From the IMG/VR virus record IMGVR_UViG_3300010885_080919, positions 1 to 64,000 of that record: a DNA stretch of 64,000 nucleotides; one strand, given 5' to 3'. The notes beneath the pieces were generated by a model. It ran no database searches. It was not told where the DNA came from and saw nothing but the letters and a program-made list of their open reading frames with translations. This DNA is from a virus. Each line of letters starts with the position of its first letter. Within the stretch, counting starts at the first letter, position 1. The translations under genes and the position numbers were made by a program. Of this stretch, positions 17,752 to 43,044 are shown piece after piece.

Positions 17752-18129
17752 TCATTTCAACCAGTTTAAAAAACTGGATTTTTCTTTATACCCTTTATTC
17801 CTTTTTAATACTTCTTCGTCTTTATCGATCAGCATATAATCTGGAATAGTTTTTACATTGAATTTCTTAGCAAGCTCTGGGTTTTCGTCTATATCGACCT
17901 TCAAAACAATGTAGTTATCCATTTTGTTGACAACGTCAGGATCCTTAAACAAGGATTGCATTTTACTGCAGTAACCACACCAAGATGCTCCAAAATACAA
18001 GAAAATTTTCTTTTCAGTAGATTTAGATATAGTGGTAGCATCTATATAACTCGTCACTTCCTTGGACAACGCATTTTGCCCTAAAAACATCAAATAATAT
18101 AAAAACAGTGATAAACACACATTTTTCAT
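17752..18129 (-). CDS. Thioredoxin with N-terminal signal peptide
   Basis: FGASWCGYC, VKTIPD; hydrophobic N-terminus; GGAGG RBS before MKNVCL. Confidence 0.9.
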   Translation of the reverse strand: MKNVCLSLFLYYLMFLGQNALSKEVTSYIDATTISKSTEKKIFLYFGASWCGYCSKMQSLFKDPDVVNKMDNYIVLKVDIDENPELAKKFNVKTIPDYMLIDKDEEVLKRNKGYKEKSSFLNWLK

Positions 18130-18224
18130 TAACACCTCCTTGGTTAATGTGTACATAATATATATTCAATTCGATATATATATTCATAATGTACCTTTAG
18201 GCGATGCTAAACATGAACGTAAAT

Positions 18225-20751: not shown

Positions 20752-22437
20752 GTGTTTAGTTTCAAAATATGGCTAGAAAATCATGTGCGGGATAATCCAG
20801 ATCCTTTTGTTGTTTTGGATTTGCCTAAATCGGCTTCCCAAAAAGAAGTCGAACAACAATACAAAAAATTAAGTATGCTTTACCAAAGACGTATTCCAAC
20901 TATGTCTGCGATTAATAAAGCTTATGAAAAAATAAATCAAGGATTAACTCACAAAACATCTCCAGAAACTCCAGAAACTATCCCAGTTGCTAATAGATTT
21001 AACAACAACAATAATTATTCTATTCTTGATGCTCGTTCTAAAATGATTGATTATACACCTGGTCAAAAAAAAGCATTACTAGAAATTCAAAAAATTATTG
21101 ATGGCAGTGAATCTGCGGTATCTTCTATTGCAAAACATTACCTACTAGCCGGATATGCAGGTACCGGCAAAACAACCCTTGCTGAAAATATAGTCAGATA
21201 TAGTATGTCTAAAGGAATGAAAGTTCGTGTCATAGCACCCACAAACAAAGCAGCAATGATTCTTAGCGAAAAACTAAGAGAATCAGGTGTAAATCTTAAT
21301 CCTGACTCGATCAGTACTATCCACAAAACAATATACGGAACCCCAGCATCATATTACAAAGACCGTCTTAACTGGGAGTTATCCTCTGGTCATGTTATTA
21401 ATGATACTGTATTTATCATAGATGAGTCATCTATGATAAACAAAACTACTATGAACGATTTATTAGAACTAACTAAATTTCATCATAATGTTTTGATTTT
21501 TATGGGGGATAGCTATCAACTACAACCAGTAGGACAAGATGCCGGATTGTTTCACGGAAATGTTTCTCAAATAGGGAGCAACAAAAGCGAACTGAAAGAA
21601 GTCAAACGACAAGCATTAGATAGCAATGTTTTAAAAATAGCGACTCTGGTTAGAGGTGACGCCAAACCCTACATACCATCAGAATCTATAGAAAATTTTA
21701 AGGTTTGCGAAACAAAAAAAGAATTTTTAGACAATTACAAAGAATCATTAAAAAACAATGAAGATGTAATTATGATTGTCGCTACTAATAAAGAAAGAAT
21801 GTTGATGAATTCGTTTGCCAGAGAAGTAAGGTTTGGCGACAATAAAACAATCTTAAACTCCAAAGAATCATTAATATCCTTGGCTAATTCTGAACATTTA
21901 AAAAACGGCGAAGTATTTACAATAGAAAATTTTAATATTCAAGAAGATATAAATATCGAAGAAATATCATCTAAAATTTATCTAGGTTCAGCAAAAATTC
22001 CTAAAAGTGGTTCGTGCTCAGGAGGTTCTTGTCCACTAGTTTTTATTCCCGACTTTGAAAAACCTGCATTTCCTCACCAATTTTTAATCGATGAATTAAA
22101 AAAAGAAATGTGGAAAGGAAACGGAAAATCTATTTTGTTAGAAAAATTAAAATCTAACAATATGATAGAAAATTCCGATGCTGGAAAAATAAAAATCAAT
22201 AAGGATACCGTGATCGCAACCTACGGCTATGCAGTCACAGCACATAAATCACAAGGATCACAATGGAAAAAAGTTTTCATTTACCAAAACTTCATGTCAG
22301 ATACATGGGATAATACAAGATGGTATTACACAGCTATTACTAGAAGCACAAAAGATGTTATCGTACTTAACTCAGGAAACAATATTCTTATTAGTCAAGA
22401 AGAAATAAATCAAAAAATACAAAATATTACCATTTGA
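20752..22437 (+). CDS. SF1B Dda/RecD-like helicase with N-terminal J-domain-like region
   Basis: GYAGTGKT, IAPTNKAA, IIDESSM, GDSYQLQPV, YGYAVTAHKSQGS, YTAITR. Confidence 0.9.
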   Translation: MFSFKIWLENHVRDNPDPFVVLDLPKSASQKEVEQQYKKLSMLYQRRIPTMSAINKAYEKINQGLTHKTSPETPETIPVANRFNNNNNYSILDARSKMIDYTPGQKKALLEIQKIIDGSESAVSSIAKHYLLAGYAGTGKTTLAENIVRYSMSKGMKVRVIAPTNKAAMILSEKLRESGVNLNPDSISTIHKTIYGTPASYYKDRLNWELSSGHVINDTVFIIDESSMINKTTMNDLLELTKFHHNVLIFMGDSYQLQPVGQDAGLFHGNVSQIGSNKSELKEVKRQALDSNVLKIATLVRGDAKPYIPSESIENFKVCETKKEFLDNYKESLKNNEDVIMIVATNKERMLMNSFAREVRFGDNKTILNSKESLISLANSEHLKNGEVFTIENFNIQEDINIEEISSKIYLGSAKIPKSGSCSGGSCPLVFIPDFEKPAFPHQFLIDELKKEMWKGNGKSILLEKLKSNNMIENSDAGKIKINKDTVIATYGYAVTAHKSQGSQWKKVFIYQNFMSDTWDNTRWYYTAITRSTKDVIVLNSGNNILISQEEINQKIQNITI

Positions 22438-22681: not shown

Positions 22682-24082
22682 TCATTCAAACTCCTTCAAT
22701 TCGACTTCATGACCCTGTTCTTTTAATATCTTCATTCTCTTTTTAGAATGTTTTTGCAAATAGTCGTTTATTTCAAACATAAAGTCGTAATAATTTAAAA
22801 TTTCTTTGTCATCTGCTGTTCTCAGCCCTCTTCCCATCCTCTGTACGATTTGATGGTCTGCTTGACCTCCTGCTGCGTTTATAAGATTGTGAATAAAAAC
22901 ATTTATGCCCGTGTTGAAGATCTGTTGAGTAGCTATGGCAACGCACTTTTCTGATTTCTGCAATTCATTTATAACACTTTTTCTTGTTTTAGAATCATCT
23001 TTTCCCTGAACCCAAAGGCTATCTGGAAGAAGACCATGCAAAGAATCCCCATGAGCTATTCTGTCAACCAGAATCAATGTTCTTCCAGTTTGCTGTTTAG
23101 CTAATTTAACAACCATTTTGTGGAAGTACAAAGACTCAGCTATTCCTCTTGTGACTGCATCTAAATAGATATCATGTGGAATCTGAGGCTCTCTTACAGG
23201 ATAAAATATACATTTAGATTTCGAAAGAATGCCACGGTTTTGTAGTTCTGCCGTAGTCAATATGCCAGTTTCTGCTGATTTGACTTTCAAAATTGGACCA
23301 AAATAACCTCTTACACTAAACTTCTGCACATTATCTTTCCCGCCAAATTTAAAAGGGGTCGCACTAACAGCAACCCGAACATCAGCTTCTTTCAACTTCC
23401 TGTACACTGCTTTTGGCAAAGCACTCATCATATCGTGGATTTCGTCCACAATAAGAACTTTTATTTTAGGTAGTAGTTTTTCAACTTTAGCAATCGATTG
23501 TACGCTGGCCACAGTGATCACATTAGGCTTTACCGACCCTCCCCAGACATTTCCAACATTTGGAAATCCCATTTTAATCAATTCGTCGTAATTTTGTTGG
23601 GCAAGACTTAGCCTATTTTGTAGCAGCAATATAGGCGTATTAGGAGCAAGGGTCTTTATAATTCCCAACATTATCAATGATTTGCCAGCAGATGTAGGAG
23701 CAAATATAATTCCTCTTCTGTGCTTGATCACCTGATTGATCAACTCTACCTGATAGTCTCTTAAAATCAGTGATTCATCATTTAAAAAATTCTCACCTAT
23801 GGAGCTAACATCAAATTTTGTCGGAATTCGAGAGTCTTCTACTGTGTATTGTGCGTTATTGTGTTTTAAGACGGCACTTACTTCTGGAAGTAGGCCTGTT
23901 AAGAATTTTCCTTTTTCTATATCAAAAAAATTTATAAATCCGTCCCATTTTTTCATCTTATAGGCACGGTTATGGAAATAATTCTTATCTCTGAATCTGA
24001 GTCTATCCCATAGATCTTTTTTTACAGCGTTGTTATTTGACAAAAAATACGAATAATCGTTAGTTATCTTTAGTATGTTCAT
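22682..24082 (-). CDS. uvsW: UvsW-like SF2 DNA/RNA-DNA helicase
   Basis: KWDGFINFF, LRDYQ, APTSAGKS, DEIH, SATP, QRMGRGLR. Confidence 0.88.
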   Translation of the reverse strand: MNILKITNDYSYFLSNNNAVKKDLWDRLRFRDKNYFHNRAYKMKKWDGFINFFDIEKGKFLTGLLPEVSAVLKHNNAQYTVEDSRIPTKFDVSSIGENFLNDESLILRDYQVELINQVIKHRRGIIFAPTSAGKSLIMLGIIKTLAPNTPILLLQNRLSLAQQNYDELIKMGFPNVGNVWGGSVKPNVITVASVQSIAKVEKLLPKIKVLIVDEIHDMMSALPKAVYRKLKEADVRVAVSATPFKFGGKDNVQKFSVRGYFGPILKVKSAETGILTTAELQNRGILSKSKCIFYPVREPQIPHDIYLDAVTRGIAESLYFHKMVVKLAKQQTGRTLILVDRIAHGDSLHGLLPDSLWVQGKDDSKTRKSVINELQKSEKCVAIATQQIFNTGINVFIHNLINAAGGQADHQIVQRMGRGLRTADDKEILNYYDFMFEINDYLQKHSKKRMKILKEQGHEVELKEFE

Positions 24083-24782: not shown

Positions 24783-24835
24783 TTGTACGCTCCTTGTCTT
24801 GAATATCAAAATATCTATTTAAAGAAAGAAAAAAT

Positions 24836-24863
24836 TTGACTTTTGATCAGGATTTAGTATATT
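24836..24863 (+). promoter_or_regulatory. Sigma70-type promoter for the putative ncRNA
   Basis: TTGACT-16 nt-TATATT. Confidence 0.6.
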
Positions 24864-24869
24864 GATATT

Positions 24870-25247
24870 GGACACCGAAAGGTGCTTATCTCGTTAAACT
24901 ATATTAAACACTGAGTTGGACGCTCTCTCGTCCTTTGAATTGATGAAGGGCTGTACTCCCTGGATTGAATTCAAATGAAAAAAACTTTGGAGAGCCTGGA
25001 CACGGGTTGAACCTTCGTATCATTACGATCAATGCTTTACAAGCGGCATTCGATCTCCAAATCAATGAAAGTTATATTCAGAACACTAGATTACGGTTTT
25101 CACTTGTCACGAGGAAGTGAAGTGTCTGGGTTTAAGACATTGAATAAGTACACTGATTCTACAGTTAAGATTCTAGACATGGTTCAGGTTATTAGAATAA
25201 CATCTAATAATTGAAATAAACAATTGAATTATTTTCAATTGTTTTTT
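24870..25247 (+). ncRNA. Putative structured non-coding RNA of unknown family
   Basis: About ten helices found by eye (listed in findings), upstream promoter, downstream hairpin plus T-run, no credible ORF. Confidence 0.65.
25218..25247 (+). terminator. Putative intrinsic terminator (AT-rich stem)
   Basis: AAACAATTGAA-TTATT-TTCAATTGTTT followed by TTT. Confidence 0.5.
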
Positions 25248-25329
25248 CTATGAAACATATACAGAACCATTCTGCTTGGTGGAATATGTTATAATTTATG
25301 ATTGTACAATCATACTTTTTTTCAAGAAC

Positions 25330-25357
25330 TTGCAAAAAACTGATTATTTTGTATACT
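25330..25357 (+). promoter_or_regulatory. Sigma70-type promoter upstream of the PolA-like gene
   Basis: TTGCAA-16 nt-TATACT. Confidence 0.55.
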
Positions 25358-25395
25358 GATGTCAGGTAGAAAATAAAAAAAAGAATTAGTTTTTT

Positions 25396-26706
25396 ATGAA
25401 TCAAGAAGCAATTGATCTTTTTTCAAGCATAAGCAATCAAAGCGTCTTTGTGCTTTTTAATCCTGCCGTTTTTGATTTTACAGATAAAAATTCTCAAAAA
25501 GAGATTCAAATTTATCTTCAAGACGGAAGAAACGTAAACATTGCGTTAACTGAGCAAAACACTCCGTTTATAGCATCGATTTTGAAACTATCGATATTTT
25601 CTAAAGGAATGAAGATCCTTGTTTGGGATTGGAAAAATATAGCCACCTACATTCTGGCCAAAACCAATAAAAATTACATTGTTGATGGGGTTATTATTGA
25701 TTTAAAGATCTTAGAATCATATGTTGGTCGTAAACTAAAACCTCCAAAAAGCTTAAATGAAGCCCTAATTCGACTAAAAGATCTGGTTTCTAGCGGATTA
25801 TGGAAAGAAATAGAACCTATTTATAAGAATCTACATCTTCCACTTAGCACTTTTACAATACCTAGATTAGAAACAACGGCCCTAATAGACGTTTTAACGG
25901 GCAAGAAGGTTTATGCTCACTATGAGATAGATGGACAGGAGAACGGCCGTCTACGGTGCTCACAGGAGTTTAATGAGGGTTTTGTACCTCACGCCATGCG
26001 TCCTCTGGTTAAAGAAAATTTAAAACCAAGGAGTTTTGAAGAATTATTCTTGGTTTTTGATTTTAGAGCCATGGAGGTTTTTATGCTTTCTTGGCTAAGT
26101 CAAGATCCGCTTTTAAAAGAGCTAACAGAGCAGCCAGACATCTACTTCTCGCTATACAGCAAACTCATTGGATCTGAGCCGCAAAAAAAAGATGATAGAG
26201 AATTAATTAAAAAAATGTTCTTGCCGGTTATATATGGTCAGTCGTCCTACATGCTAGGACAACGCTGCAACATCCCGAAAGAAGCTGCAGATTCAATTGT
26301 AGATCGTATAAATTCCTTATTTCCAACTGCTTTGGCTTGGATCAAAAACCAACAAAAGCAGCTACAGGAATTGGGATATTCCAAAGACATATTTGGAAAA
26401 CGCCGAACATTCGATGAAGGTAAAGAATATTTAGTTAGAAATTTCTGTATACAATCACCAGCGGCGGTTGTATGTTTAGAAAAATTAAATCAATTATATT
26501 TTGCCTTTAAAAATAAAACTGATATCGCTTTTACTGTACATGACGGATATGCTGTTTATGCCAATAAAGAAAATTGGAAAGACATATTCAAGATTGGACA
26601 AGAAGTTTTATCCAGTGAAAGTGAACTTTGTCCTAAGTTGCGACTAAAAGTTACATGTCGTGGTGGAAGAAATTTAAATGATCTAAAAACTTTAAACAAA
26701 AGATAA
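25396..26706 (+). CDS. Family A DNA polymerase-like protein, thumb deleted, exonuclease domain degenerate
   Basis: NGRL, motif A DFRAME, motif B RELIKKMFLPVIYG, NFCIQSPAA, motif C VHDG. Confidence 0.88.
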   Translation: MNQEAIDLFSSISNQSVFVLFNPAVFDFTDKNSQKEIQIYLQDGRNVNIALTEQNTPFIASILKLSIFSKGMKILVWDWKNIATYILAKTNKNYIVDGVIIDLKILESYVGRKLKPPKSLNEALIRLKDLVSSGLWKEIEPIYKNLHLPLSTFTIPRLETTALIDVLTGKKVYAHYEIDGQENGRLRCSQEFNEGFVPHAMRPLVKENLKPRSFEELFLVFDFRAMEVFMLSWLSQDPLLKELTEQPDIYFSLYSKLIGSEPQKKDDRELIKKMFLPVIYGQSSYMLGQRCNIPKEAADSIVDRINSLFPTALAWIKNQQKQLQELGYSKDIFGKRRTFDEGKEYLVRNFCIQSPAAVVCLEKLNQLYFAFKNKTDIAFTVHDGYAVYANKENWKDIFKIGQEVLSSESELCPKLRLKVTCRGGRNLNDLKTLNKR

Positions 26707-26717
26707 AGGAATTTTAT

Positions 26718-27278
26718 ATGTTAGATATTTGCAATAATTTTAGAATAAATGAAGAAGAGTTTTCTGAACTAGATAAAAAATTCGGCAAACTTTGTTGGCA
26801 CGCTTCCCACGAACTAAAAAAGAAAAATTCAAATAACAACTTCACCGATGATGCAGAAGACATAAAGCAAGAACTGCTTATGAGCATGCTAAGAGCAGGA
26901 AGCTATTACAAAAGACAAATTTATATTGAAAAGTCTTTAGAAGTAGCAAAAAAATATATCGAAGACGAATTGGTCAAAAACATCGTATACGAATTAGATA
27001 ATTTGTGGAATAACCGAACAAGACACGGAGCGAATAGACAAAAATTCGGCAAACATCAAGAAAACATGCTGGAACTTATAATCAAAAAGAATGTGCCAAC
27101 GGACGAACAACCCGACAAACAACAGAACTTGAAAATAGATACTAAATTTGCAACATACTGCAAAGCCATTGTTTGGAATGGACAAAAAAGCATGGGCAAA
27201 AAGATAACAAGAGAAAAAAGCATCAGATCAGGTCAGGTAAGCCTTTCAGAATACGATTATCTTCAACGTACTTTGTAG
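26718..27278 (+). CDS. Sigma-70 region-2-like protein without region 4 (candidate late sigma factor)
   Basis: DAEDIKQELLMSMLRA ... KFATYCKAIVWN ... VSLSE. Confidence 0.55.
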   Translation: MLDICNNFRINEEEFSELDKKFGKLCWHASHELKKKNSNNNFTDDAEDIKQELLMSMLRAGSYYKRQIYIEKSLEVAKKYIEDELVKNIVYELDNLWNNRTRHGANRQKFGKHQENMLELIIKKNVPTDEQPDKQQNLKIDTKFATYCKAIVWNGQKSMGKKITREKSIRSGQVSLSEYDYLQRTL

Positions 27279-27327: not shown

Positions 27328-28878
27328 TTGAGAGAGCTAACGCCAGAAGAACAAGCACAGCTAGAAGACCTAACAGATCCAGATGTAATTAAACCTAAAT
27401 TTTCTTGGGATGATACATTTCAAAGAAAATTATTAGGAATGCTTTTGCTTGATCCCCATATGCTTGTACAAGCTATGGACAAAATCAAACCGGAGTATTT
27501 TTCTAATGAGGCTCATGTATCGATTTCTAAAATACTACTTGATCACTTTAAAACTCACAAAGCTATCCCCGAGAAGTGGATTCTTGAACAAGAACTTAAG
27601 AATGTTCTGAAGGACGCAGAAAAGAGCGTTCAATTACATTATTTGTCTGAACTGAACTGCGTTTACGATTATTACGTTCCGGGTTTAGAAGCAAGAGAAT
27701 ACCTGATTGAAAAAGTCACGTATTTTGCAAAAGTCCAAGCTATAAAAATTGCATTTCATTCGTCTCTGGAAAAGATGCAAGAAGCACCTGAAGATGAAAA
27801 GACTTGGAATTTTATTTATGAAAAGCTTCGAGAGGCAATGCTGATAGACCGTTCTTATGAACCTGGTTTAGAATACTTTCTACAACTAGACGAAATGTTC
27901 AGAAGAATGGAAGATGTTTTTGTTGGAAAAGAAAGATTTACTAGCGGTTTTGAAAGTATAGACAAAGCCTTGACTGGTGGTGGTCTTTTTGTCGGTCAAA
28001 TAGCAAGTTGGATCGGTTTGCCAGGAACAGGAAAAAGCTTAGCTCTTGTTAGAGCCGCCGTGCAAAATGTTATTCTTGGTCATAAAGTTTTATATCTAAC
28101 AATGGAGATGGATGAGCTTGGAATTGCACAGCGATTCACTTCTCAATTAGCAAAAGTAGATATTAATAATCTAAGAGATTCTAGAGAACAAATCGAAAAA
28201 ACAATCGCAGACTTCGGCAAAGACAAAGAGGATAAAAATCTTTTACATGTAAAGCAATTTCCTGGCGGCGTTATGGACGTTAACGGCATACGAGCGTTCA
28301 TGGCTCAGCTAGAACTTAGAGGATGGAAGCCTAATCTTCTAATTGTTGATTATGTGGGAGAAATGAAAGATGATCCAACCGTCAAGAAATACGAGTCTGC
28401 ATATAGAATATTGCGAGACTTAAGAGGATTCGGGGTAGAAAAAGGTCACTGCACATTTACCTGCGTACAGCCAAACGCAACAGCGGCAAAGCTTGAAATA
28501 AATCAATATATCGATGAGTCCAACATTGGAACATCTTTTGATCAGTTTAAACCTCTTGATGCTTTTTGGTCTATAAACCAGCAAACCATTGAAAAAGATG
28601 CCGAGATAGGTCGAGGATTTGTAATCAAGCATAGAAATGGTAGAAGCAGATTTCCTTTTAAAATCGGCTTTGATTTTTCTCTTGGCACCTTGGATATGTG
28701 GGAAATATCAGATGATAATTATCGATCTAAAATGAGCATGATACAAGAAAAGAAAACAAACGAAGTTGTCAGTGTAGATGGCTCCACGAAAAACGAAAAG
28801 AAGAAAAGAACATTCAAGCCAAATGCGAGTTTAGAAGGCATTATAAAGCCTATCGATTCAGAAGATTACGAAGCTTGA
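27328..28878 (+). CDS. dnaB: DnaB/gp41-like replicative helicase
   Basis: TSGFESID, GLPGTGKS, YLTMEM, LIVDY, KHRNG. Confidence 0.92.
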   Translation: MRELTPEEQAQLEDLTDPDVIKPKFSWDDTFQRKLLGMLLLDPHMLVQAMDKIKPEYFSNEAHVSISKILLDHFKTHKAIPEKWILEQELKNVLKDAEKSVQLHYLSELNCVYDYYVPGLEAREYLIEKVTYFAKVQAIKIAFHSSLEKMQEAPEDEKTWNFIYEKLREAMLIDRSYEPGLEYFLQLDEMFRRMEDVFVGKERFTSGFESIDKALTGGGLFVGQIASWIGLPGTGKSLALVRAAVQNVILGHKVLYLTMEMDELGIAQRFTSQLAKVDINNLRDSREQIEKTIADFGKDKEDKNLLHVKQFPGGVMDVNGIRAFMAQLELRGWKPNLLIVDYVGEMKDDPTVKKYESAYRILRDLRGFGVEKGHCTFTCVQPNATAAKLEINQYIDESNIGTSFDQFKPLDAFWSINQQTIEKDAEIGRGFVIKHRNGRSRFPFKIGFDFSLGTLDMWEISDDNYRSKMSMIQEKKTNEVVSVDGSTKNEKKKRTFKPNASLEGIIKPIDSEDYEA

Positions 28879-28929: not shown

Positions 28930-29406
28930 ATGGCTACAGATGCACCTATAGAAAAAGTTAAAGTTAAAGTTGCTGGGGTAGAAATAACTCTAGATCCAGA
29001 CAACATGAAGTACAACGAGAATAATCTTGGCGAATACATGAACAAAGAGTATGGCTGGATAGATTATCTCGGCAAACAGCTAGAATACGCCCAGAAAGAA
29101 GTTCTGATGGCAGATATTGATGCAGAAACTCAATATAGTAAAAAGTTTATGGAAGCTAAGGATGCCGGACAAACAGATAGCTATTCTAAGTCTTTTGCAA
29201 CTTCTCATGATGATGTTGTTCTTGCCAGAAAGAAAGTTGTTGAGGGCAAGGAAATAGTGGGTCATCTCAAGGCTCATTTGCGAGCTTGGGATAAAAATCA
29301 CGACAACGTCCAGAATAGAGGTCACAGTTTACGAGCTGAAATGAAGGTTTTGAGTAGAGACGTTTATTCAGAGCAGAATGTTGAATCTATTTTAGGAGAG
29401 ATTTGA
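28930..29406 (+). CDS. UvsY-like recombination mediator (coiled coil)
   Basis: Size, helical character and context; upstream TTGAGT-17-TATACT promoter. Confidence 0.5.
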   Translation: MATDAPIEKVKVKVAGVEITLDPDNMKYNENNLGEYMNKEYGWIDYLGKQLEYAQKEVLMADIDAETQYSKKFMEAKDAGQTDSYSKSFATSHDDVVLARKKVVEGKEIVGHLKAHLRAWDKNHDNVQNRGHSLRAEMKVLSRDVYSEQNVESILGEI

Positions 29407-29999
29407 TGATAAACCCTTTAAAGATAACAAACTATCGACAAACTGAAGCCGGATTACAAGAATCAATTTTGTTCTGGATATTGGCTGCCGGTAAAAACGG
29501 CTTAACGGCAGCCAATTGTTTAGAATCCTTATTAAATTCGTGGAGGAAAAAAACTCCATTTAAAACTATTGTTCACATAAACAATAGTACGAATCTTGCT
29601 GAAGAAATGAAGCGTCATGGTATAGGTTGTTACAATCATAAGTCTAAATCCTTTTTGGATCTAATTAGCAAGAATTTAGATTTAAAAACATGTTCGGTTG
29701 ATGAGCTGGAATCTGTTAGAGGTATAGGTCCAAAAACTGCAAGGTGTTTTTTAATTCACAGCAGAAAAAATCAAAGATACGCAGGAATAGATACTCATCT
29801 ACTGAAGTTTATGAGGGATATGAATTACGAAACTCCCAAATCTACTCCTAGTGGAAAAAAATATAAAGAATTAGAAGGTTTCTTTTTACGTCTTTGTGAT
29901 CAGGTTTCTATGAAGCCTGCAGATTTGGATCTTCTTGTGTGGAATGCGTATTCTGGCAACATAGGAGAACCAAGAGACGTATTGAGCCTTTTTGCCTGA
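29403..29999 (+). CDS. HhH-GPD superfamily DNA glycosylase-like protein
   Basis: LESVRGIGPKTARCFL...AGIDTHL...DLDLLVW. Confidence 0.82.
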   Translation: MMINPLKITNYRQTEAGLQESILFWILAAGKNGLTAANCLESLLNSWRKKTPFKTIVHINNSTNLAEEMKRHGIGCYNHKSKSFLDLISKNLDLKTCSVDELESVRGIGPKTARCFLIHSRKNQRYAGIDTHLLKFMRDMNYETPKSTPSGKKYKELEGFFLRLCDQVSMKPADLDLLVWNAYSGNIGEPRDVLSLFA

Positions 30000-30010
30000 A
30001 ATCGGACAAC

Positions 30011-30568
30011 ATGGAAAACAAAATACGTTGGCTTTTACAAAAAGATGTAAAATCTATATTAGAAATACAAAACTCTTGTCCTTATTCTCCTAATTGGAGC
30101 AAAAAATATTATATTGACATAGTCAAATCCAAGAAAAATTCTGAAGCCAAGAACATGTTGGTTTCATATGTTTGTGAAGTTGAGAACAATTTGGTTGGAT
30201 ATGTTGTGTATAAGGTTGGTTTGGCTTCAGCGAAGAATGAAGAGTTCTTTGCTGAAAACACGAGTATTATAAGCAAGAGCCCTGTATTTTATGGCAAAAT
30301 AACTAATTTATGTGTTCATCCTGATTATAGAATGCAAGGAATAGGAAGATCTTTAATAGAATTCGTAATTAAAAAGTTTTCGGATGTTAAAGATTTAACT
30401 ACTGAAGTGCCGTCTGTTAGGCCTTTTATTTTATTTACATCTTTGAGTGATCGAGATCTTGGTTCACATTTGTTTTATAGTAAGATGGGGTTTTTAGGAA
30501 AGAATGTTTCCCGTGATTTGTTTGGAAAAGATCATGATGGATATAGTTTTTACTTGTCGAGGATGTGA
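30011..30568 (+). CDS. GNAT acetyltransferase (RimI-like)
   Basis: ITNLCVHPDYRMQGIGRSL, FYSKMGF. Confidence 0.85.
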   Translation: MENKIRWLLQKDVKSILEIQNSCPYSPNWSKKYYIDIVKSKKNSEAKNMLVSYVCEVENNLVGYVVYKVGLASAKNEEFFAENTSIISKSPVFYGKITNLCVHPDYRMQGIGRSLIEFVIKKFSDVKDLTTEVPSVRPFILFTSLSDRDLGSHLFYSKMGFLGKNVSRDLFGKDHDGYSFYLSRM

Positions 30569-30993
30569 TGTGGGATGAAAGATTTATACTTTTGGCTAAG
30601 CATATAGCTAGCTGGAGTAAGGATCCAAGCACTAAAGTAGCGGCGGTGATATATGATGATAATCACCGTATTATCTCTACAGGCTATAATGGCTACGCAG
30701 CGGGCGTATTAGATGTAGGATTAGAAGACAGAGAGAAAAAATACAAAAAAATCATACACGCAGAAATAAATGCGATTATTTTTGCTTATAGAAATTTGTC
30801 TGGTTGTACTTTGGCTACATGGCCTTTTATGCCTTGCTCCACATGCTCCTCAGCAATTATACAGTCTGGAATAACTAGGTGTGTTTATCCAAAGGCTAAT
30901 AAAAGTGATTTGATTAGATGGGGAGATTCTTTCGAACTAGCTAGAGAACAATTCGTCGATGCAGGTGTTGAGATGAAGGAATATGAAATATGA
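30565..30993 (+). CDS. dCMP deaminase
   Basis: WSKDPSTKV, GYNG, HAEINA, PCSTC. Confidence 0.92.
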   Translation: MMWDERFILLAKHIASWSKDPSTKVAAVIYDDNHRIISTGYNGYAAGVLDVGLEDREKKYKKIIHAEINAIIFAYRNLSGCTLATWPFMPCSTCSSAIIQSGITRCVYPKANKSDLIRWGDSFELAREQFVDAGVEMKEYEI

Positions 30994-31317: not shown

Positions 31318-32266
31318 TTTTTCTCGCTTTGTTGAAGCCTTTTATTATTTCTTCTGTTTTTAGCTCTGTTATACAAGGTTTTTGCACATTATTTGAATCT
31401 TTAGTGCAACTTGTGTGGACAAAGCAGGGCCCGCAATCCCAATTTCCTTCATCTCTGTGTTTTTGTACTAAAACAAAGTCGAAATATTTTCCATAAATTT
31501 TACCGTCAGTAAATGAAAAAATACCAACCAAAGGACGTTTCAGACCTCCAGCTAAATGAAACGTCGCAGTGTCTACGGAAATAACATAGTCGGACAGACT
31601 CACCAAAGCGATCCATTTTTGAGGGCTTATATCTACAAATTGTTCTACTTTTAAAAGATCGTAAATAGCTTGGTTTTGTTTGTCTATAGTGATTGGTACT
31701 ATATCTTCTTTTCTTAAATATTCTACTATTTCTACTATCTGTTTATCTGTTAAGCTTTTTGCTTTTCCAAAATCAGTGTCTGTAGATTTTGTTGAAAGAA
31801 CTACTATCTTTTTGTTTTCTGGATTAATTTCATTTAATATTTTTTTACAAATTTCCACCTGCACTGGATCAGGGTTCAAATACATTTCGTGGTTAGTAAG
31901 CTCTACCCCACAGTGTTTTGCCCATATATCGCTTCTATGTTTGTTGTTTTTAGATCCGAGTATAGTTTCTGTTTTTGCACACACAGTTGTTATGTCATAG
32001 ATCACCCCGTAATCAGATTCTTTTACTTGAGACATTTCTTTTACATTATTTAAAAATGGATGATTAAATGCGAATTGTATGAAAGGATAAGGACATGTAT
32101 AATGTATTTCTAGGTTGGTTTTAGAAAAATCTTCGAACATCATCCTCTGCATCAGTATGTCTCCAAATCCACCTGTTCCTCTTTTTATAAGTACTTTATT
32201 TCTTCTTTCGTAAAAGTCTTGCAAAGAAAGATTTTTTTTATTTTTTAAGATTAGTCTTGGTGTCAT
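31265..32266 (-). CDS. Glycosyltransferase family 9 (heptosyltransferase-like)
   Basis: GGFGDIL, VISVDTATFHLAGGLKRPLVGIF. Confidence 0.88.
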   Translation of the reverse strand: MTPRLILKNKKNLSLQDFYERRNKVLIKRGTGGFGDILMQRMMFEDFSKTNLEIHYTCPYPFIQFAFNHPFLNNVKEMSQVKESDYGVIYDITTVCAKTETILGSKNNKHRSDIWAKHCGVELTNHEMYLNPDPVQVEICKKILNEINPENKKIVVLSTKSTDTDFGKAKSLTDKQIVEIVEYLRKEDIVPITIDKQNQAIYDLLKVEQFVDISPQKWIALVSLSDYVISVDTATFHLAGGLKRPLVGIFSFTDGKIYGKYFDFVLVQKHRDEGNWDCGPCFVHTSCTKDSNNVQKPCITELKTEEIIKGFNKARKNDTTTSLSKNIRQRNKN

Positions 32267-32896
32267 ATGAATAAAATAGCAATACAACAACCTTATTTTT
32301 ATCCTTATTTAGGATATTTTAAATTAATTCAATCAGTAGATGTATTTGTATCGCTGAATGATGTGCAGTATATTAGAAGAGGCTGGGTCAATAGAAACAA
32401 ACTCAATAAAGAATTATTTTTAACAGTTCCCATAATAAAAACAAATAGAAATGAGTTAATTAGTAATATTAAAATAGACTACTCTTCTAATTGGCATTAT
32501 AAGCATTGTAGGACTTTAGAAACAATGTATGGAAAAAAATGTTTTGAACACCCTATTTATTTATTTTATAAGAATATTCCAAAATATGTTTTTATTATAG
32601 ACTTATTAAAAGATTCTATAAAAAATATTTGTGAATTTTTACAAATAAAAACAAAATTTCTAGATTCGGAAAAAATTAAAATAAATCCTTTGTATAAAAA
32701 ACAGCAAAGAATAATAGAAATTTGCAATACACTAAATTGTAAATATTATTACAATCTTCCCGGAGGCCAAAATTTATATTGTAAAGAAGACTTTTTGGCA
32801 AATAATATAAATTTAGAGTTCATACAAACAGAAGAAATTATCAATCGATTGTCTATATTTGATCTTTGTTTAGGAGAAGGTTTAGAAAAAATATGA
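32267..32896 (+). CDS. WbqC-like protein
   Basis: IQQPYFYPYLGYFKLI..VDVFV..DVQY..RGWVNRN. Confidence 0.92.
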   Translation: MNKIAIQQPYFYPYLGYFKLIQSVDVFVSLNDVQYIRRGWVNRNKLNKELFLTVPIIKTNRNELISNIKIDYSSNWHYKHCRTLETMYGKKCFEHPIYLFYKNIPKYVFIIDLLKDSIKNICEFLQIKTKFLDSEKIKINPLYKKQQRIIEICNTLNCKYYYNLPGGQNLYCKEDFLANNINLEFIQTEEIINRLSIFDLCLGEGLEKI

Positions 32897-33492
32897 ATCC
32901 TTACACTATAGTGGCAGAATTTGAGAAAATGGTGGCAGAATACGCTGGTAGTAAATATGCTGTCGCAGTAGATAATTGCACAAATGCAATTTTTTTATGT
33001 TGTAAGTATCTCGGCGTTAAAGAGGTTACAATTCCTAGCAGAACATACGTTTCAGTTCCTTGTGCTATTATTAATTCTGGTGGGCGAGTGAAGTTTTCAG
33101 ATTACGAATGGCTGAATAAAGGATATTATAAATTAGATCCATATCCAATTTACGATGCTGCTCAATTTTTTAATCGGGACATGTACATTAAGAATTCATA
33201 TTTTTGTTTATCTTTTTCGGCCACAAAGACAGTAAACATAGGCAAGGGGGGAATGATATTAACAGATGATGAAAAAGCAGTTAATTGGTTCAAACAAGCA
33301 AGGTATTGCGGACGACATGAAGTTCCACTAATGAATGACAATTTTGAAATTATAGGGTGGAATATGTATATGCTACCAGAACAAGCAGCTCGGGGTTGCT
33401 TGTTAATGAGTCATGTGAAAGACACTAATCAACAAAAAAATCCAGAATACCCAGATTTATCTAATTATAAAATTTATTCATTCAATAGCTAG
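32893..33492 (+). CDS. Short DegT/DnrJ/StrS-family PLP aminotransferase
   Basis: AVAVDNCTNA, DAAQ, LSFSATK...GGMILTDD. Confidence 0.85.
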   Translation: MNPYTIVAEFEKMVAEYAGSKYAVAVDNCTNAIFLCCKYLGVKEVTIPSRTYVSVPCAIINSGGRVKFSDYEWLNKGYYKLDPYPIYDAAQFFNRDMYIKNSYFCLSFSATKTVNIGKGGMILTDDEKAVNWFKQARYCGRHEVPLMNDNFEIIGWNMYMLPEQAARGCLLMSHVKDTNQQKNPEYPDLSNYKIYSFNS

Positions 33493-33527
33493 ACAGTATT
33501 TTATTTTATATTGTAGTATATAAAAAT

Positions 33528-34241
33528 ATGATATTAGTCTACACTGTTAGTGATTTTAAGCCCCAAGCAGATCAATGCATCAATATGATGGTAGATAGTC
33601 TAAAAAAAGATAATTTTGATTTTTGTGTAATAACTAATAAAAAGCCTCCAAGTAATTTTAAACATAATGTTGTTATAGATACTAATAATTTTGATTATGT
33701 TGGATTCCTAAAATACTCAGAAAAAATACCAGGAAATTATGATCACTATATTTATTTGGATTCAGATATTTTGTGCTTTGAAAAGCCTTCTAATTTAATT
33801 ACTAAAAAAATTTTTTCATCTGTACTGGAAGGCAGAGCATTTGGCAACAAATTAAAAAGCAATAGTCATTGGCATAAATATAATTTTTGTTCTTTTGATC
33901 AAAAGCAAAAGCTATTGAAATTTCCTGATTTAAATGCTGGGTTTTTTTCATTTAAAAAATCAGAATTAGATTTTATAAAACAAGTGAAAGGGTTTTATGA
34001 AAGCCATATAAGTTTGATATCTTATAAAAACGCTATGTTAGAGCAAAGTTCTTTTAATTATGCTATTGCTCAATATTGTAATTTTGATATTAGTAATATT
34101 GAAGATTTTAGCAATTTTGTTGTTATGTTTGCAGACGGATCAACAAAATTTTCTAATAAATATATTTATCATTTTTGCGGCTTTACAAATGAAATGAAAT
34201 CTAAACAAAGGTTGATGAAGAAATTTTTATGTAAAATTTAA
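33528..34241 (+). CDS. GT-A glycosyltransferase (GT8-like)
   Basis: YLDSDIL, LNAGFF, EQSSFN, YHFCG. Confidence 0.75.
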   Translation: MILVYTVSDFKPQADQCINMMVDSLKKDNFDFCVITNKKPPSNFKHNVVIDTNNFDYVGFLKYSEKIPGNYDHYIYLDSDILCFEKPSNLITKKIFSSVLEGRAFGNKLKSNSHWHKYNFCSFDQKQKLLKFPDLNAGFFSFKKSELDFIKQVKGFYESHISLISYKNAMLEQSSFNYAIAQYCNFDISNIEDFSNFVVMFADGSTKFSNKYIYHFCGFTNEMKSKQRLMKKFLCKI

Positions 34242-34900
34242 ATATATATGCGAGCTAATTTATGTAAAGCTCCTGTTTTATTTTCAATTTTATTTATTTT
34301 TAATCCACAATAAAATGCAGAAAAAGCAACTAGATAAGACTCATTTCTTAAATTTATATTTTTATTTTTTATTGCAAATTTTTCTAAATAGTCCCAATAA
34401 TTGAAAAATATTTCTTTTTGAATTTCATCTTTAAATTTAAAAAAATAAAACCATTCGTATGGCATGTAAAGGTTCAATAAATTTTTTTCTGAAAACTTTG
34501 TTATATTTTTGAAAAAATTTATATTGTACATTAATTTTTTTTTATCAATAAAATTATCTAATATTTTTGGAACTTTGTAACCGTATGCTGAAAATATATA
34601 TGGAGAATAAATTCCTTCTTCTGCTATTTTTAATTTTTCACAACACTCTAAAAAATCTTTTTTATTAACACAGGTCACATCTGAATCAATACAGAGAGTT
34701 CCTTCGGGATCATATGAGCTTCTTATAATAAATCTCTTACAATTGGTATTGAATACATCTTGTTCTTTTTGGTTTTTATAAAATAAAATTGCATTTTTTG
34801 GAAGACTTTTGTGGATCTCTATAGGAACGGGCAAGCTTTTGGCAAGATTCAAAGCTCTTTTTTGAGATTTATTTCCTATTGCTAAAGTACAAATATTCAT
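34238..34900 (-). CDS. Putative GT-A-like protein
   Basis: CIDSDV DxD motif; island context. Confidence 0.5.
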   Translation of the reverse strand: MNICTLAIGNKSQKRALNLAKSLPVPIEIHKSLPKNAILFYKNQKEQDVFNTNCKRFIIRSSYDPEGTLCIDSDVTCVNKKDFLECCEKLKIAEEGIYSPYIFSAYGYKVPKILDNFIDKKKLMYNINFFKNITKFSEKNLLNLYMPYEWFYFFKFKDEIQKEIFFNYWDYLEKFAIKNKNINLRNESYLVAFSAFYCGLKINKIENKTGALHKLARIYI

Positions 34901-35077
34901 TATTGTATATATTATTTTGCTTGATAATTCAGTAGAATCTATAAATAAATTACAATATTGATATTATTTCTTTAAAAGATATCTTTCATCATTTGGGTTA
35001 GATTCCTATAAAACACAAAATTTAAAGCCTAATTACTTTTAAGTTTGATAAAATTTATATTATTGCTATATTATTTC

Positions 35078-35899
35078 ATGAAACTTTGCATGAGTACAAT
35101 GTGTATAGACAACGCTTCGATTGAAGATAAAATAAAATCAATCGCACAGGCAGGATTTGACTCTATTGAAATTTGGATCAAAGATTTAAAAAATATACCA
35201 GAAATAAAGAGAATCATAAAAGGCGAAGGCATTAGAGTGGCAGAGACAGTCAAGATTGAAGGGTGGTTCGAGCTTGATGGCTCTCTTATGGGGGTTAAAG
35301 ATGATTGGAGCTCTATATTTGATGAATGTAAAAAAAGAATTGATATTACCAAAGAATTATCATCTAAATACATAGTCGCTTTACCCAGTAGAAGTGACAG
35401 AGGCAGATTTTCTTCTATGAGTGATGGTGTAGAAAGATATATTAAAATATTAGAATATGGAAAGACAATAGGCGTTTGTCCGACTTTAGAATTTATTGGT
35501 CAATCAAAACAAATAAATAATATTGATTCTGCTTTAAATTTTCTAAATTTAGTTAATGATTCTTATTGCAAGTTGATTGTAGATGTTTTTCATATCTGGA
35601 GAAGCGGCGATGAGATTGGATATTCCAAAAAAATTCCAATAGAGTCCATCAGTTTGCTTCATCTACACGACGTAACATCTACCTATCAACGTTCAGAATA
35701 TAAAGATAGACATAGGGTTATGCCGGGAGATGGTATTTTAAATTTGAAAGAATTTATAGAAATATTCGAAAAAAAAGGTTTTACAGGAGACGTTTCTTTA
35801 GGTGTTTATAATCATGATAATTGGGTAAAAGATTCTTACGAAGTTGCAAAAGAAGGATTTTTTAAAATGAAAAAAATAATGACAATGGGGTCTTTGTGA
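35078..35899 (+). CDS. Sugar-phosphate isomerase/epimerase (xylose isomerase-like TIM barrel)
   Basis: AGFDSIEIW, LEF, DVFH, HLHD, RVMPGDG. Confidence 0.88.
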   Translation: MKLCMSTMCIDNASIEDKIKSIAQAGFDSIEIWIKDLKNIPEIKRIIKGEGIRVAETVKIEGWFELDGSLMGVKDDWSSIFDECKKRIDITKELSSKYIVALPSRSDRGRFSSMSDGVERYIKILEYGKTIGVCPTLEFIGQSKQINNIDSALNFLNLVNDSYCKLIVDVFHIWRSGDEIGYSKKIPIESISLLHLHDVTSTYQRSEYKDRHRVMPGDGILNLKEFIEIFEKKGFTGDVSLGVYNHDNWVKDSYEVAKEGFFKMKKIMTMGSL

Positions 35900-36480
35900 T
35901 GAAAAGTGCTTGTGTGATAGGATCCAACGGCAAGCTGGGAACAGCGATTTGCAATGTGTTGAGTGATTTTGATTTAAAAATAATAAAACATTATGGCAAA
36001 TCTGATGTAGATTTTACTAGTGAAGCTGAGGTAATTGAGTTTTCAAAGAATATAAATAATCTAGATTATTTATATTGCACTATGGGCAAAAAAATAGAAG
36101 GTTCTTCATTCGATGACATTGAAGTTTTTAAGAAAATAATTGAAATAAATCTATTTTCTGTATTTCTTTGTTGTAAATACTTAATTCCTAAAATGAACTC
36201 TGATTCTAGTGTTGTACTGGTTGGAAGTTCTGATGGTTGTTTTGGCAATAAATCTACTATGTACTCAACAGCTAAATCTGCTCTTCATACTTATTCTAAG
36301 TGTTTGTCTAAAGAGTTAAAAGAAAAGAAAATTAATGTAAACTGTATAGCTCTCGGCACGCTGTTTGACAAAGAAATAATAGATAGTAGTGCAAAATCAA
36401 TAGTTAATATTTGCATGTCAAGTCATATAAATGGACAAATTATAAGAGTAGACGGAGGCAATCATACTTTTCCATGTTAG
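35896..36480 (+). CDS. Short-chain dehydrogenase/reductase
   Basis: GSNGKLG, YSTAK, VNCIALG, INGQIIRVDGG. Confidence 0.88.
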   Translation: MMKSACVIGSNGKLGTAICNVLSDFDLKIIKHYGKSDVDFTSEAEVIEFSKNINNLDYLYCTMGKKIEGSSFDDIEVFKKIIEINLFSVFLCCKYLIPKMNSDSSVVLVGSSDGCFGNKSTMYSTAKSALHTYSKCLSKELKEKKINVNCIALGTLFDKEIIDSSAKSIVNICMSSHINGQIIRVDGGNHTFPC

Positions 36481-37259
36481 AAAAAAATGGGTTTTTATTA
36501 GTTAAAGATTTTTGTACTAATGATGTCAAAAATATAAAAAAAGAAATGGAAGTTTCTTTTGAATTAATTTGTAAAAGAAAATATAAAAATATAGACAAGG
36601 ATATTATTTGTTTATTCAAAGAAGATAGGTCTAAGTTTTTGGGTTGGGCCAACATGTGTCAGAATTTGTTGTCTGTTCATAGGCTTGCAAATTCAAAAAA
36701 AATTGAAAACTTATTGGTTTCTAATGGTTTAAAAATGCCAGTTTTAAACACTAGGCCTCTTCTTTCTTTGAGTTGCAAAAGTATTGCTGAGCACGAATCA
36801 TATTGGAAGGTCCCAGATCATCAAGATTGGCCTAGCACGAGAGGCAGCCTTAATGGCGTTACAATTTGGCTGCCTTTAATTAGTTTATGCAATAATCTGG
36901 GTCCTTTAGAGGTTTTAAAACATAGTCATTTAGACGGATTGTTGAACCACGATAATGATGGCTTGGTACCTGTAATTAGTAGCGAAATATCGTCTGATTT
37001 TATATCGAAAAAAATGAAAATTGGAGATATTTTGATTTTTAATTATTTTACAGTGCATAGATCTGGTACTAATTTATATGCTGATAGAATAAGATGGTCT
37101 TTGCATTTTAGATACGATGATGCAAAAGAAAAAACTTTTATAGAAAGAAAATATCCTAGATATAAAAAAGATATAAGATTAGATGAAAAATTAGATTATT
37201 CTTTTCCTACTAAAGAACAAATAAAAAATGCTATTTTTACTAAAACAAAAACGTCCTAA
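36474..37259 (+). CDS. PhyH-family Fe(II)/2OG dioxygenase
   Basis: HQDW, TIWLPL..NLGPLEV, HRSG.N....R. Confidence 0.88.
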   Translation: MLEKNGFLLVKDFCTNDVKNIKKEMEVSFELICKRKYKNIDKDIICLFKEDRSKFLGWANMCQNLLSVHRLANSKKIENLLVSNGLKMPVLNTRPLLSLSCKSIAEHESYWKVPDHQDWPSTRGSLNGVTIWLPLISLCNNLGPLEVLKHSHLDGLLNHDNDGLVPVISSEISSDFISKKMKIGDILIFNYFTVHRSGTNLYADRIRWSLHFRYDDAKEKTFIERKYPRYKKDIRLDEKLDYSFPTKEQIKNAIFTKTKTS

Positions 37260-38034
37260 TATAGACTTTTTTATAAAAAAAATAAAGAATAATGAGTATT
37301 TTTATTACTGTAAATTAAATCATGCTTTTTTTGAAGCTACTTGTTTGGGTTACGAAATTCCAAAACAAAGATTTGAAACCTTGCATTCTAATATTCTTTC
37401 TCAAATAATTGATATAATTAAAAATTTTCCTAAAGATAATAATTTTTTATTTGCTTTTTCTGCAAAACCTTATGAGGGGTTCAAACCGCCATCAGATAAA
37501 AAAGTTATAGAATTTTTGTATTCTATTTTACCTAGACACAAATTTTTAGTTTATGATTCTTTGCTTTTTAAAAAATATTGTATTAGTGGCGAGATTGTGA
37601 AGTTGTTCGATATAATTAATTTAAAAAAAATGAAAGTTATTTTGTATGGATTGGATCATTTAAAAAATGTCAATAAAAATATTAATTTTTTAAATTTTGA
37701 GTTTAGAAAAATTAATATTGATGTCACCAAACAAAAAGAAGCTTTGATTTATGACATAATATCAAAACATGAAAGCAATTCTATTTATTTTTTTCAACTT
37801 GGAGAGGCTTTATCAACTTGGGTCATTTATAATATTTACAACAATATCAAAGATTCGTATTTTATAGATCTGGGCAGATCTATAGATTATTTTGTTGATC
37901 TTAAAGAAATGAAATTTTCTAAAGAAGATCAAGATATATATCTTGATCTTTCTCAAAATACTTTAAATTTAAATGATCATTTTTCTAATTGTTTTTCAAA
38001 TAAAAATTGGATGATAAAATGGAATAAAAATTAA
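37228..38034 (+). CDS. Hypothetical protein, possibly GT-D-like
   Basis: FIDLGRSID near the C-terminus; island context. Confidence 0.45.
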   Translation: MLFLLKQKRPNIDFFIKKIKNNEYFYYCKLNHAFFEATCLGYEIPKQRFETLHSNILSQIIDIIKNFPKDNNFLFAFSAKPYEGFKPPSDKKVIEFLYSILPRHKFLVYDSLLFKKYCISGEIVKLFDIINLKKMKVILYGLDHLKNVNKNINFLNFEFRKINIDVTKQKEALIYDIISKHESNSIYFFQLGEALSTWVIYNIYNNIKDSYFIDLGRSIDYFVDLKEMKFSKEDQDIYLDLSQNTLNLNDHFSNCFSNKNWMIKWNKN

Positions 38035-38073
38035 TTTTTTTGTGATACAATTATATATTGGAAAATTATAAAA

Positions 38074-39708: not shown

Positions 39709-39716
39709 GGCTTGAA

Positions 39717-40322: not shown

Positions 40323-40343
40323 TTGTTTTACTACTTTAATTTC

Positions 40344-41744: not shown

Positions 41745-41756
41745 TTTTATATTTCT

Positions 41757-43008: not shown

Positions 43009-43044
43009 TTTCTGCGTGTTGAACATTTTTATAGGGTATAATTT

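Follow-up and report, generated by a model that had tools for sequence, protein, structure and literature searches.

Introduction

Divergent PolA proteins of phages were described by Yutin et al. (Virol J 2024, PMC11348598), who found one of them, divPolA1, in 14 phages with genomes of 155-190 kilobases (kb). In divPolA1 the thumb is truncated, the exonuclease inactivated and the palm intact; the gene lies beside that of a regular polymerase, with replication genes downstream, and the same work described divPolA2, which has no recognizable thumb. The PolA proteins of UniProt fall into 19 clusters, none of them thumbless, and several of these clusters pair a Leu at position 3 of motif B with 'broken' thumbs (Czernecki et al., NAR 2023, PMC10201439). 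Family A enzymes also recruit accessory subunits, examples being T7 gp5 with thioredoxin on its thumb and CCPol with MP, the latter a small protein that alters the ability of CCPol and makes it a primase (Bebel et al., eLife 2020, PMC7581432). As to the thumb itself, the work of Minnick et al. (1996), as it is cited in PMC2441791, reports that Klenow which lacks only the tip of its thumb binds DNA with lower affinity, is less processive and has a reduced frameshift fidelity. Here we describe a gene for a predicted family A DNA polymerase without a thumb, designated mini-PolA, and the small protein encoded directly after it, designated o186. Both genes are located in the virus record IMGVR_UViG_3300010885_080919 of IMG/VR, which is 98,320 bases long; its first 64 kb are referred to as the window. 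CheckV rates the record as about 20% complete, which corresponds to a phage genome of about 0.5 Mb. All that is said below on function is based on sequence, gene context and the predicted structure.

Results

A predicted family A polymerase core without a thumb

The mini-PolA reading frame passed the curated cut-off of Pfam DNA_pol_A (PF00476), scoring 87.9 bits against a threshold of 34.3 (E value 8.4e-25). Residues 169-427 paired with profile positions 104-379 of 381, so that positions 1-103, which hold the thumb, had no counterpart in the protein. Taq residues 560-819 were aligned by phmmer to residues 172-417, and the alignment of a family profile with Bst and Klenow began at residue 169-170. 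Upstream of residue 167, no sequence similarity to any solved polymerase was detected.

A structural model was built with AlphaFold2 (AF2) from an alignment, designated A1, of 31 homologs with 46-72% identity to the query. The model had a mean predicted local distance difference test score (pLDDT) of 92.5 and a predicted template modelling score of 0.91. Superposition with VIA-align on Protein Data Bank (PDB) chains of KlenTaq and the Bst large fragment (Bst BF) gave Z values of 30-32 and a root-mean-square deviation of 2.7-3.3 Å over 386-411 of the 436 residues (model 1-432 against KlenTaq 294-832 and Bst BF 303-876), and Foldseek was concordant. The superposition thus recovered the Klenow-type fold of palm, fingers and exonuclease-like domain. 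These parts take up about 94% of mini-PolA, as judged from the number of residues superposed, and about 150 residues of the KlenTaq and Bst targets were left unaligned.

The thumb of Pol I at the equivalent point is a four-helix subdomain of about 100 residues. Thumb helices H, H1, H2 and I were looked for in the AF2 model and none was present; only about ten residues lie between residues 160 and 172. DSSP assigned a helix to residues 135-160, followed by short strands at 163-165, 170-173, 175-177 and 187-189, and a single short helix at 203-208 precedes the motif A strand at 216-224. The first of these helices ends in P-R-L-E and is connected through the ten-residue stretch to a strand with the sequence V-Y-A-H-Y-E. 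Two neighboring palm strands are linked by a tight turn, which suggests that the thumb was excised cleanly at its base. The predicted structure, the unmatched PF00476 positions and the superposition confirmed that mini-PolA is a family A core with the whole thumb missing. An earlier note on this DNA, made from its sequence alone, had claimed such a deletion and a join of only about 8 residues between the helix before it and the next strand, and had named a thumb in a structural model as the result that would overturn the claim.

The active site was compared with that of Klenow across the homologs of A1 (Klenow numbers in brackets). R185 (R668), D222 (D705) and the steric-gate residue E227 (E710) were invariant, as were R268 (R754), K272 (K758), Y280 (Y766) and L276 (position 762) of motif B, N349 (N845), and H382 (H881) and D383 (D882) of motif C. 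Q353 (Q849) was almost invariant, and residue 384 (E883) was either Gly or Ser. Motifs A, B and C, with both catalytic Asp residues and the R/K/Y set of the O helix, are therefore all present, and the catalytic and minor-groove residues were conserved with few or no exceptions even in homologs of only about 30% identity. The residue equivalences given in the earlier note, its Leu at position 762 and its loss of E883 all held up across A1. The N-terminal domain was aligned from model residue 1-8 onto the vestigial exonuclease domains of KlenTaq and Bst BF. D27, W77, K80, D102 and E107 of this domain are invariant in A1, and no conserved acidic residue lies in its strand 1. The Exo I motif, DxE, is therefore absent, as the note had also observed. 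To judge by these residues, mini-PolA looks like a DNA-templated polymerase that selects deoxynucleoside triphosphates (dNTPs) and does not proofread. We propose that the reading frame encodes a real, selected and catalytically competent family A polymerase with a dead proofreading site.

The thumbless form is shared by a large family in huge phages

A search of 5.8 billion proteins returned 200 relatives of mini-PolA, the best 120 of which were 46-100% identical to it and nearly all 430-460 amino acids (aa) long. An exhaustive search of representatives clustered at 50% identity returned at least 216 clusters with E values of 1e-30 or below, with lengths of about 420-450 aa and identities down to 31%. 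Lengths of 410-460 aa were found for 240 of the 268 homologs collected (median 437 aa). In 200 of the 215 homologs with both a P.LE helix and a GQxNGR motif, the two are spaced by 20 residues, counted from the helix end. Close homologs were all short, with an equal linker. A one-off decayed allele of a full-length gene, the other outcome that would have told against the deletion, was ruled out by these hundreds of homologs of equal length and linker. Longer fused forms of the thumbless polymerase were not found, which is weak evidence, and the top 50 matches in BFVD included no viral model of similar size and shape, all being polymerases of 580-1300 aa or fragments. Listeria phage LP-110 was considered as a source of a second thumbless PolA on the basis of a tblastn match from residue 117 and was rejected; its protein is a normal 755-aa enzyme, with which BLASTP and hhalign alignments begin at residue 167-171.

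Four homologs of 519-545 aa (P0139, P0150, P0155 and P0204) represent a sub-lineage of the family and carry an N-terminal extension of 85-125 aa with the shared motif GD.V.. / NYLPRYK / W.GK. The extensions match no Pfam domain and could be an added nucleic-acid-binding domain.

At least 79 loci encoding the polymerase were identified in IMG/VR, on contigs of up to 532, 381 and 343 kb. The only good match in deposited phage genomes was the 595-kb uncultured phage LR756511 (34% identity), and the phage collection that was searched yielded no cultured member of the clade. Huge phages with contigs of 0.2-0.6 Mb thus make up this clade, and the thumbless polymerase belongs to its core genes.

The polymerase gene is coupled to the gene for a small basic protein

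The gene neighborhood was assessed by tblastn of the window proteins against the 79 IMG/VR loci. The o186 gene lies directly 3' of the polymerase gene at every locus (Table 1), and the junction is never interrupted. The distance from the polymerase stop to the o186 start was -26 to +22 nucleotides (nt) in 37 of 38 distinct junctions, nine of which are ATGA overlaps. The linkage is reciprocal: when loci were picked by o186, mini-PolA was directly upstream in 78 of 79 informative loci. Spacing between o186 and DnaB varies by up to 1.7 kb, and that between o249 and the polymerase by up to 5 kb. Of the two proteins o186 evolves more slowly, at 51-83% identity against 30-70% for the polymerase. Such an unbroken, reciprocal and translationally coupled linkage is the signature of an obligate pair. 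The earlier note had raised the possibility of a partner acting in trans, for which these data provide strong genomic support in the form of o186.

In the sole exception to the reciprocal linkage (L166, 82-624), an open reading frame (ORF) of 180 aa with an excisionase/MerR-like helix-turn-helix tail precedes o186 at the contig edge; it looks like a mobile insertion. An apparent 618-aa fusion of the two proteins in L079 was ruled out by an in-frame TAA at 6160.

Table 1 Features of the polymerase locus in the window (positions 1 to 64,000).
Feature	Position	Strand	Evidence and occurrence
Thumbless family A DNA polymerase (mini-PolA), 436 aa	25396..26706	+	Pfam, AF2 model, structure superposition, homologs of equal length
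Vestigial 3'-5' exonuclease-like N-terminal domain, aa 1-134, no DxE	25396..25797	+	Structural alignment, A1
Long helix (aa 135-160) and linker of about 10 residues (aa 161-171) at the thumb site	25798..25908	+	DSSP of the model, fixed family spacing
Palm and fingers with intact motifs	25909..26703	+	Alignments to Taq and Bst, A1 invariance
o186, 186-aa all-helical basic protein, candidate accessory subunit, possibly sigma-region-2-like	26718..27278	+	79/79 loci
DnaB-like replicative helicase	27328..28878	+	phrog_19 (1.6e-52); Pfam DnaB_C, DnaB; downstream in 75/79 loci
o158, conserved 158-aa protein after DnaB	28930..29406	+	71/79 loci
o249, divergently transcribed, about 240 aa	24060..24809	-	68/79 loci
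UvsW-like SF2 helicase	22682..24082	-	phrog_16 (2.3e-68); ResIII, Helicase_C; weak UvsW_N; near in 22/79 loci
Dda-like SF1 helicase	20752..22437	+	phrog_325 (6.5e-67); AAA_30, UvrD_C_2
Conserved structured RNA core upstream of the polymerase gene	24985..25144	+	RNAalifold, covariance model

The phages also encode a DnaE-type polymerase

The earlier note had asked whether a separate replicative polymerase is encoded in the full genome. A DnaE-type Pol III alpha was found in the genome to which the window belongs (G000), beyond the window, at 82131-83462 and 86687-89413. DnaE was also found in the related genomes G002, G003, G005, G006, G007 and LR756511. Where both genes lie on one contig (G000, G002, G003 and G005), DnaE is 52-62 kb downstream of mini-PolA. 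DnaE was not seen in G001 and G004, whose contigs stop 19 kb and 18 kb past the polymerase gene; since these contigs end short of 52-62 kb, its absence from them is uninformative. Each genome carries one PolA, and no PolB was found in the genome or the relatives examined. DnaG-like ORFs, 339-394 aa long, were identified in four relatives by their DnaG zinc-ribbon and/or DNAG_N signatures; this rules out a phage without a primase, a situation that would favor a primase role for mini-PolA. A Pol I divided over two genes, one of them for the 5' nuclease, was likewise rejected, as PF02739 was sought in five genomes and had no match. Beta-clamp domain 3 was not found.

The presence of DnaE in the genome and its relatives, with no second PolA and no PolB, indicates that mini-PolA is not the sole or main polymerase. 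The thumbless enzyme seems to be an accessory polymerase beside a C-family replicase, and bulk replication is most likely performed by the DnaE-type Pol III alpha, with priming by the DnaG-like primase. The role of mini-PolA had been described in the earlier note as specialized and non-replicative. The co-encoded DnaE supports the first part of this description, and the second is overstated because the gene forms the center of a replication module that is conserved and has DnaB on its 3' side.

The DnaE gene of G000 is split. The ORF at 82131-83462 (L005) comprises PHP and palm positions 2-98, and the second ORF at 86687-89413 (L006) comprises palm positions 100-259, the fingers and a helix-hairpin-helix (HhH) element. 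The halves are about 3.2 kb apart, with other ORFs in between. The same split point occurs in G002 and G003, further breaks occur in G005, and LR756511 has a single gene of 1183 aa. An intein was considered for the split gene and rejected, as Pfam gave no match to an intein domain.

A conserved structured RNA in the spacer before the polymerase gene

A structured RNA was identified in the 586-nt spacer at 24810-25395, on the strand of the polymerase gene, where five relatives share 67-74% nucleotide identity. RNAalifold on five sequences predicted 53 pairs, 23 of them with compensatory changes. A covariance model of the core matched nine loci in all, at equal relative position; four of these are more distant loci (L037, L016, L070 and L059), in which the match was full-length. 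In the alignment fitted to the model 92% of cells were paired, and 33 of 43 pairs showed double changes, compared to 8-15 in slid controls. No Rfam family matched the RNA. A promoter-like site at 24836-24863 precedes it. The RNA may be an operon leader or a separate RNA.

Other genes near the module

The o158 protein matched no family and none in PHROGs, and o249 had no sequence match in Pfam, PHROG or PDB. A T4 gp59-like helicase loader was considered for o249 and rejected, as it was suggested by only one ESM Atlas cluster (score 0.91) and had no sequence support in Pfam or PDB. After the replication block lie genes for an Ogg-like HhH DNA glycosylase (29403-29999), a GNAT acetyltransferase (29939-30568) and a dCMP deaminase (30565-30993). 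The G+C content of positions 32000-44000 of the window is 25-28%, compared to 32-36% in the flanks. A thioredoxin-domain protein is encoded at 17752-18156 on the minus strand (phrog_22, E value 2e-7). Thioredoxin is the processivity factor of T7 polymerase and binds an insertion in its thumb, and this insertion is absent from the thumbless polymerase.

Discussion

The strict, reciprocal and coupled linkage of mini-PolA to a slowly evolving basic protein, with DnaB following, suggests a two-subunit accessory polymerase in which mini-PolA is the catalytic subunit and o186 its partner, acting beside DnaB. We consider the chance that this is correct to be about even. By analogy with the Klenow thumb-tip mutant, the thumbless enzyme alone should hold duplex DNA poorly, and low processivity and frameshift errors would be expected of it. 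Co-translated and more conserved than the polymerase, o186 would provide the grip on DNA or on the replisome that mini-PolA lacks. Next to DnaB, the two proteins would make short stretches of DNA, either in primer extension at initiation or in filling lagging-strand gaps, as DnaE carries out bulk synthesis alongside. The present data show the fold, the loss of the thumb, an active site and a form that are conserved through the family, the company of DnaE and DnaG and the tight coupling of the two genes; from them we infer a physical complex of the two proteins, a low intrinsic processivity and the step in replication that the pair would serve.

Several observations weigh against such a pair. 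Overlaps of stop and start codons are frequent in phages even between unrelated genes. No protein in which the two are fused was found among the homologs, and the search of five genomes with PF02739 revealed no flap endonuclease that would complete a role in Okazaki maturation. The best structural resemblance of o186, finally, is to domain 2 of sigma factors, so that o186 may be a transcription factor like T4 gp55 that is adjacent to the polymerase by co-regulation only.

The last of these points is the basis of a second explanation, in which the polymerase alone is a distributive gap-filling or repair enzyme and o186 is an unrelated gp55-like late sigma factor, adjacent by operon structure. 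The AF2 model of o186 is all helical (pLDDT 85); a basic loop at 102-106 is disordered. Neither a sequence profile search nor Foldseek found a significant match in PDB. When the model was scanned exhaustively with VIA-align, about 20 of the top 50 matches were to sigma domain 2 chains, including SigB, sigma 28, a sigma 70 fragment, RpoS, several extracytoplasmic function sigma factors and pro-sigma K. These matches cover 70-90 residues, and their Z values of 5.5-7.1 are in a range that VIA-align itself does not take as conclusive for helical proteins and that lies wholly below its noise level for that class. Neighbors of o186 in the ESM Atlas include viral and bacterial Sigma70_r2 clusters, three of 23 o186 members gave a weak match to Pfam Sigma70_r2 (E value 0.03), and motifs in the protein resemble QE..L..A and KF.TY. 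Sigma region 4 is absent from o186, which ends about 20 residues after a region 2.4-like helix; T4 gp55 likewise lacks region 4. As modeled, the fold of o186 is likely sigma-2-like, extended by an inserted helical segment of about 75 residues, and the protein may serve RNA polymerase, the DNA polymerase or both. The nearby Ogg-like glycosylase is in keeping with a repair enzyme, yet it is near in only 19 of the 79 loci. Adjacency by operon structure would not readily account for a polymerase-o186 junction that is unbroken and reciprocal when every other junction of the module takes insertions. Taken together, these observations leave a separate sigma factor beside a lone polymerase a doubtful explanation, though the main alternative.

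A third explanation is that mini-PolA and o186 form an initiation enzyme, either a primase-polymerase that uses dNTPs, as CCPol-MP does, or an origin-specific starter. In the latter version the sigma-2-like subunit would bind or melt DNA and the polymerase would extend a transcript, perhaps the upstream RNA, before DnaB is loaded. The gene order and the upstream RNA make a role as primase or in origin firing attractive: the order of polymerase, small partner and helicase mirrors that of CCPol-MP-Cch2, the conserved RNA is encoded by the same strand at a distance of 250-400 nt upstream, and UvsW-like and Dda-like helicases are encoded nearby. The relatives have DnaG-like primases, however, and the likeness to CCPol-MP does not extend to the proteins, as MP is a beta-barrel and CCPol has no exonuclease domain, whereas o186 is helical and mini-PolA keeps its exonuclease-like domain. 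The RNA could be a plain 5' leader. An initiation enzyme is therefore improbable. Also improbable, and slightly more so, is the fullest form of the idea, a self-contained origin-firing machine of RNA, thumbless PolA, sigma-2-like subunit and DnaB, with an open cleft that starts DNA chains de novo or from RNA. Its sigma-like subunit would recognize or melt DNA, or hold single strands. If such a machine exists, its polymerase would be a primase-polymerase of a novel type, with no relation to DnaG or the archaeo-eukaryotic primases and distinct from CCPol-MP.

It is very unlikely that mini-PolA serves as the main replicase and owes its processivity to its partner or to a clamp. It is the sole PolA of each genome and is encoded next to DnaB, and G001, which is rated 100% complete, shows no DnaE; against this, DnaE was found wherever the contig extends 52-62 kb downstream, G001 and G004 end before that distance, and mini-PolA has no proofreading site. 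A non-catalytic scaffold, or pseudo-polymerase, would fit the loss of the thumb and of the exonuclease site and the replacement of E883 by Gly or Ser, and is nevertheless hardly credible in view of the conservation to about 30% identity of the metal-binding Asp residues, the R/K/Y of motif B, the steric-gate Glu and the equivalents of R668, N845, Q849 and H881.

To our knowledge, the thumb is regarded as universal in the right-hand design of polymerases. Its complete natural removal, under strong selection and in hundreds of giant-phage lineages, is a direct natural test of thumb function and of how the job of the thumb passes to another protein. The thumbless family points to a huge-phage replisome with at least two polymerases, DnaE and mini-PolA. 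With its 436 aa, its intact active site and its obligate small partner, mini-PolA is a candidate tool enzyme as well.

Comparison with known systems

Mini-PolA shares with Klenow, KlenTaq and Bst the same two-domain fold and the catalytic and minor-groove residues, and the exonuclease domains of Taq and Bst are dead as well. It differs from these enzymes in the absence of their thumb, which comprises about 100 residues (helices H to I), in Leu at position 762 and Gly at E883, and in having no 5' nuclease domain. In the Klenow thumb-tip mutant reported from Minnick et al. (1996), as far as the citing paper describes it, only the tip was removed, and by engineering, whereas mini-PolA lost the whole subdomain by evolution and under selection. 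The Leu at position 3 of motif B and an altered thumb are shared with the 'broken-thumb' Leu-B3 supercluster of SPO2-like, KPP25-like, APEX 1/2 and CHEAP enzymes, and mini-PolA further resembles the APEX enzymes in its dead exonuclease site and its position as an auxiliary to a main polymerase. Those enzymes differ in that they keep their thumb, though it is kinked.

CCPol-MP-Cch2 of SCCmec (Bebel et al., eLife 2020, PMC7581432) is similar in that a compact family A polymerase, a small linked partner and a helicase are encoded in the same order. In contrast to mini-PolA, which keeps the exonuclease-like domain at aa 1-134 and lacks the thumb, CCPol lacks the exonuclease domain and has a thumb. 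The partners differ as well, MP being a five-stranded beta-barrel and o186 all helical, and the helicase of the CCPol system is MCM-like where that of the phages is DnaB.

The closest design is that of divPolA1. Both enzymes are about 440 aa long, keep the catalytic residues of the palm, have a truncated thumb, lost altogether in mini-PolA, and an inactive exonuclease, and are encoded in addition to a regular polymerase (DnaE in the present phages) with DnaB downstream. The divPolA1 of Flavobacterium phage vB_FspM_immuto (immuto) is 441 aa long, and its gene is followed by two small ORFs and genes for a single-stranded DNA-binding protein, RecA, a 5'-3' exonuclease and DnaB. In BLASTP, in which immuto alone was compared, mini-PolA matched its gene 1 without significance (E values 0.7-1.3), and hhalign gave a probability of 59% (E value 9e-5) for immuto divPolA1, compared to 98.8% for an ordinary phage PolA. 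Immuto divPolA1 also differs in having about 20 residues at the thumb site and in the loss of the steric-gate Glu and the motif C His, and o186 showed no similarity to the two small proteins encoded after it. At the level of sequence, therefore, mini-PolA is not detectably closer to divPolA1 than to ordinary PolA enzymes, and its lineage seems set apart from divPolA1, as represented by immuto, by the absence of a significant BLASTP match, the preference of hhalign for ordinary PolA, the residues lost in immuto and the unrelated neighbors. No paper mentioning divPolA1 was found in the later literature, and nothing was found under 'thumbless polymerase'. The mini-PolA proteins make up a large lineage of thumbless PolA that had not been described before and that has a dedicated partner of its own, in phages much larger (0.2-0.6 Mb) than those that encode divPolA1 (155-190 kb). 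The published divPolA1 shows that the theme of a reduced thumb recurs, and the thumbless family described here presents it in a much larger family that has its own partner.

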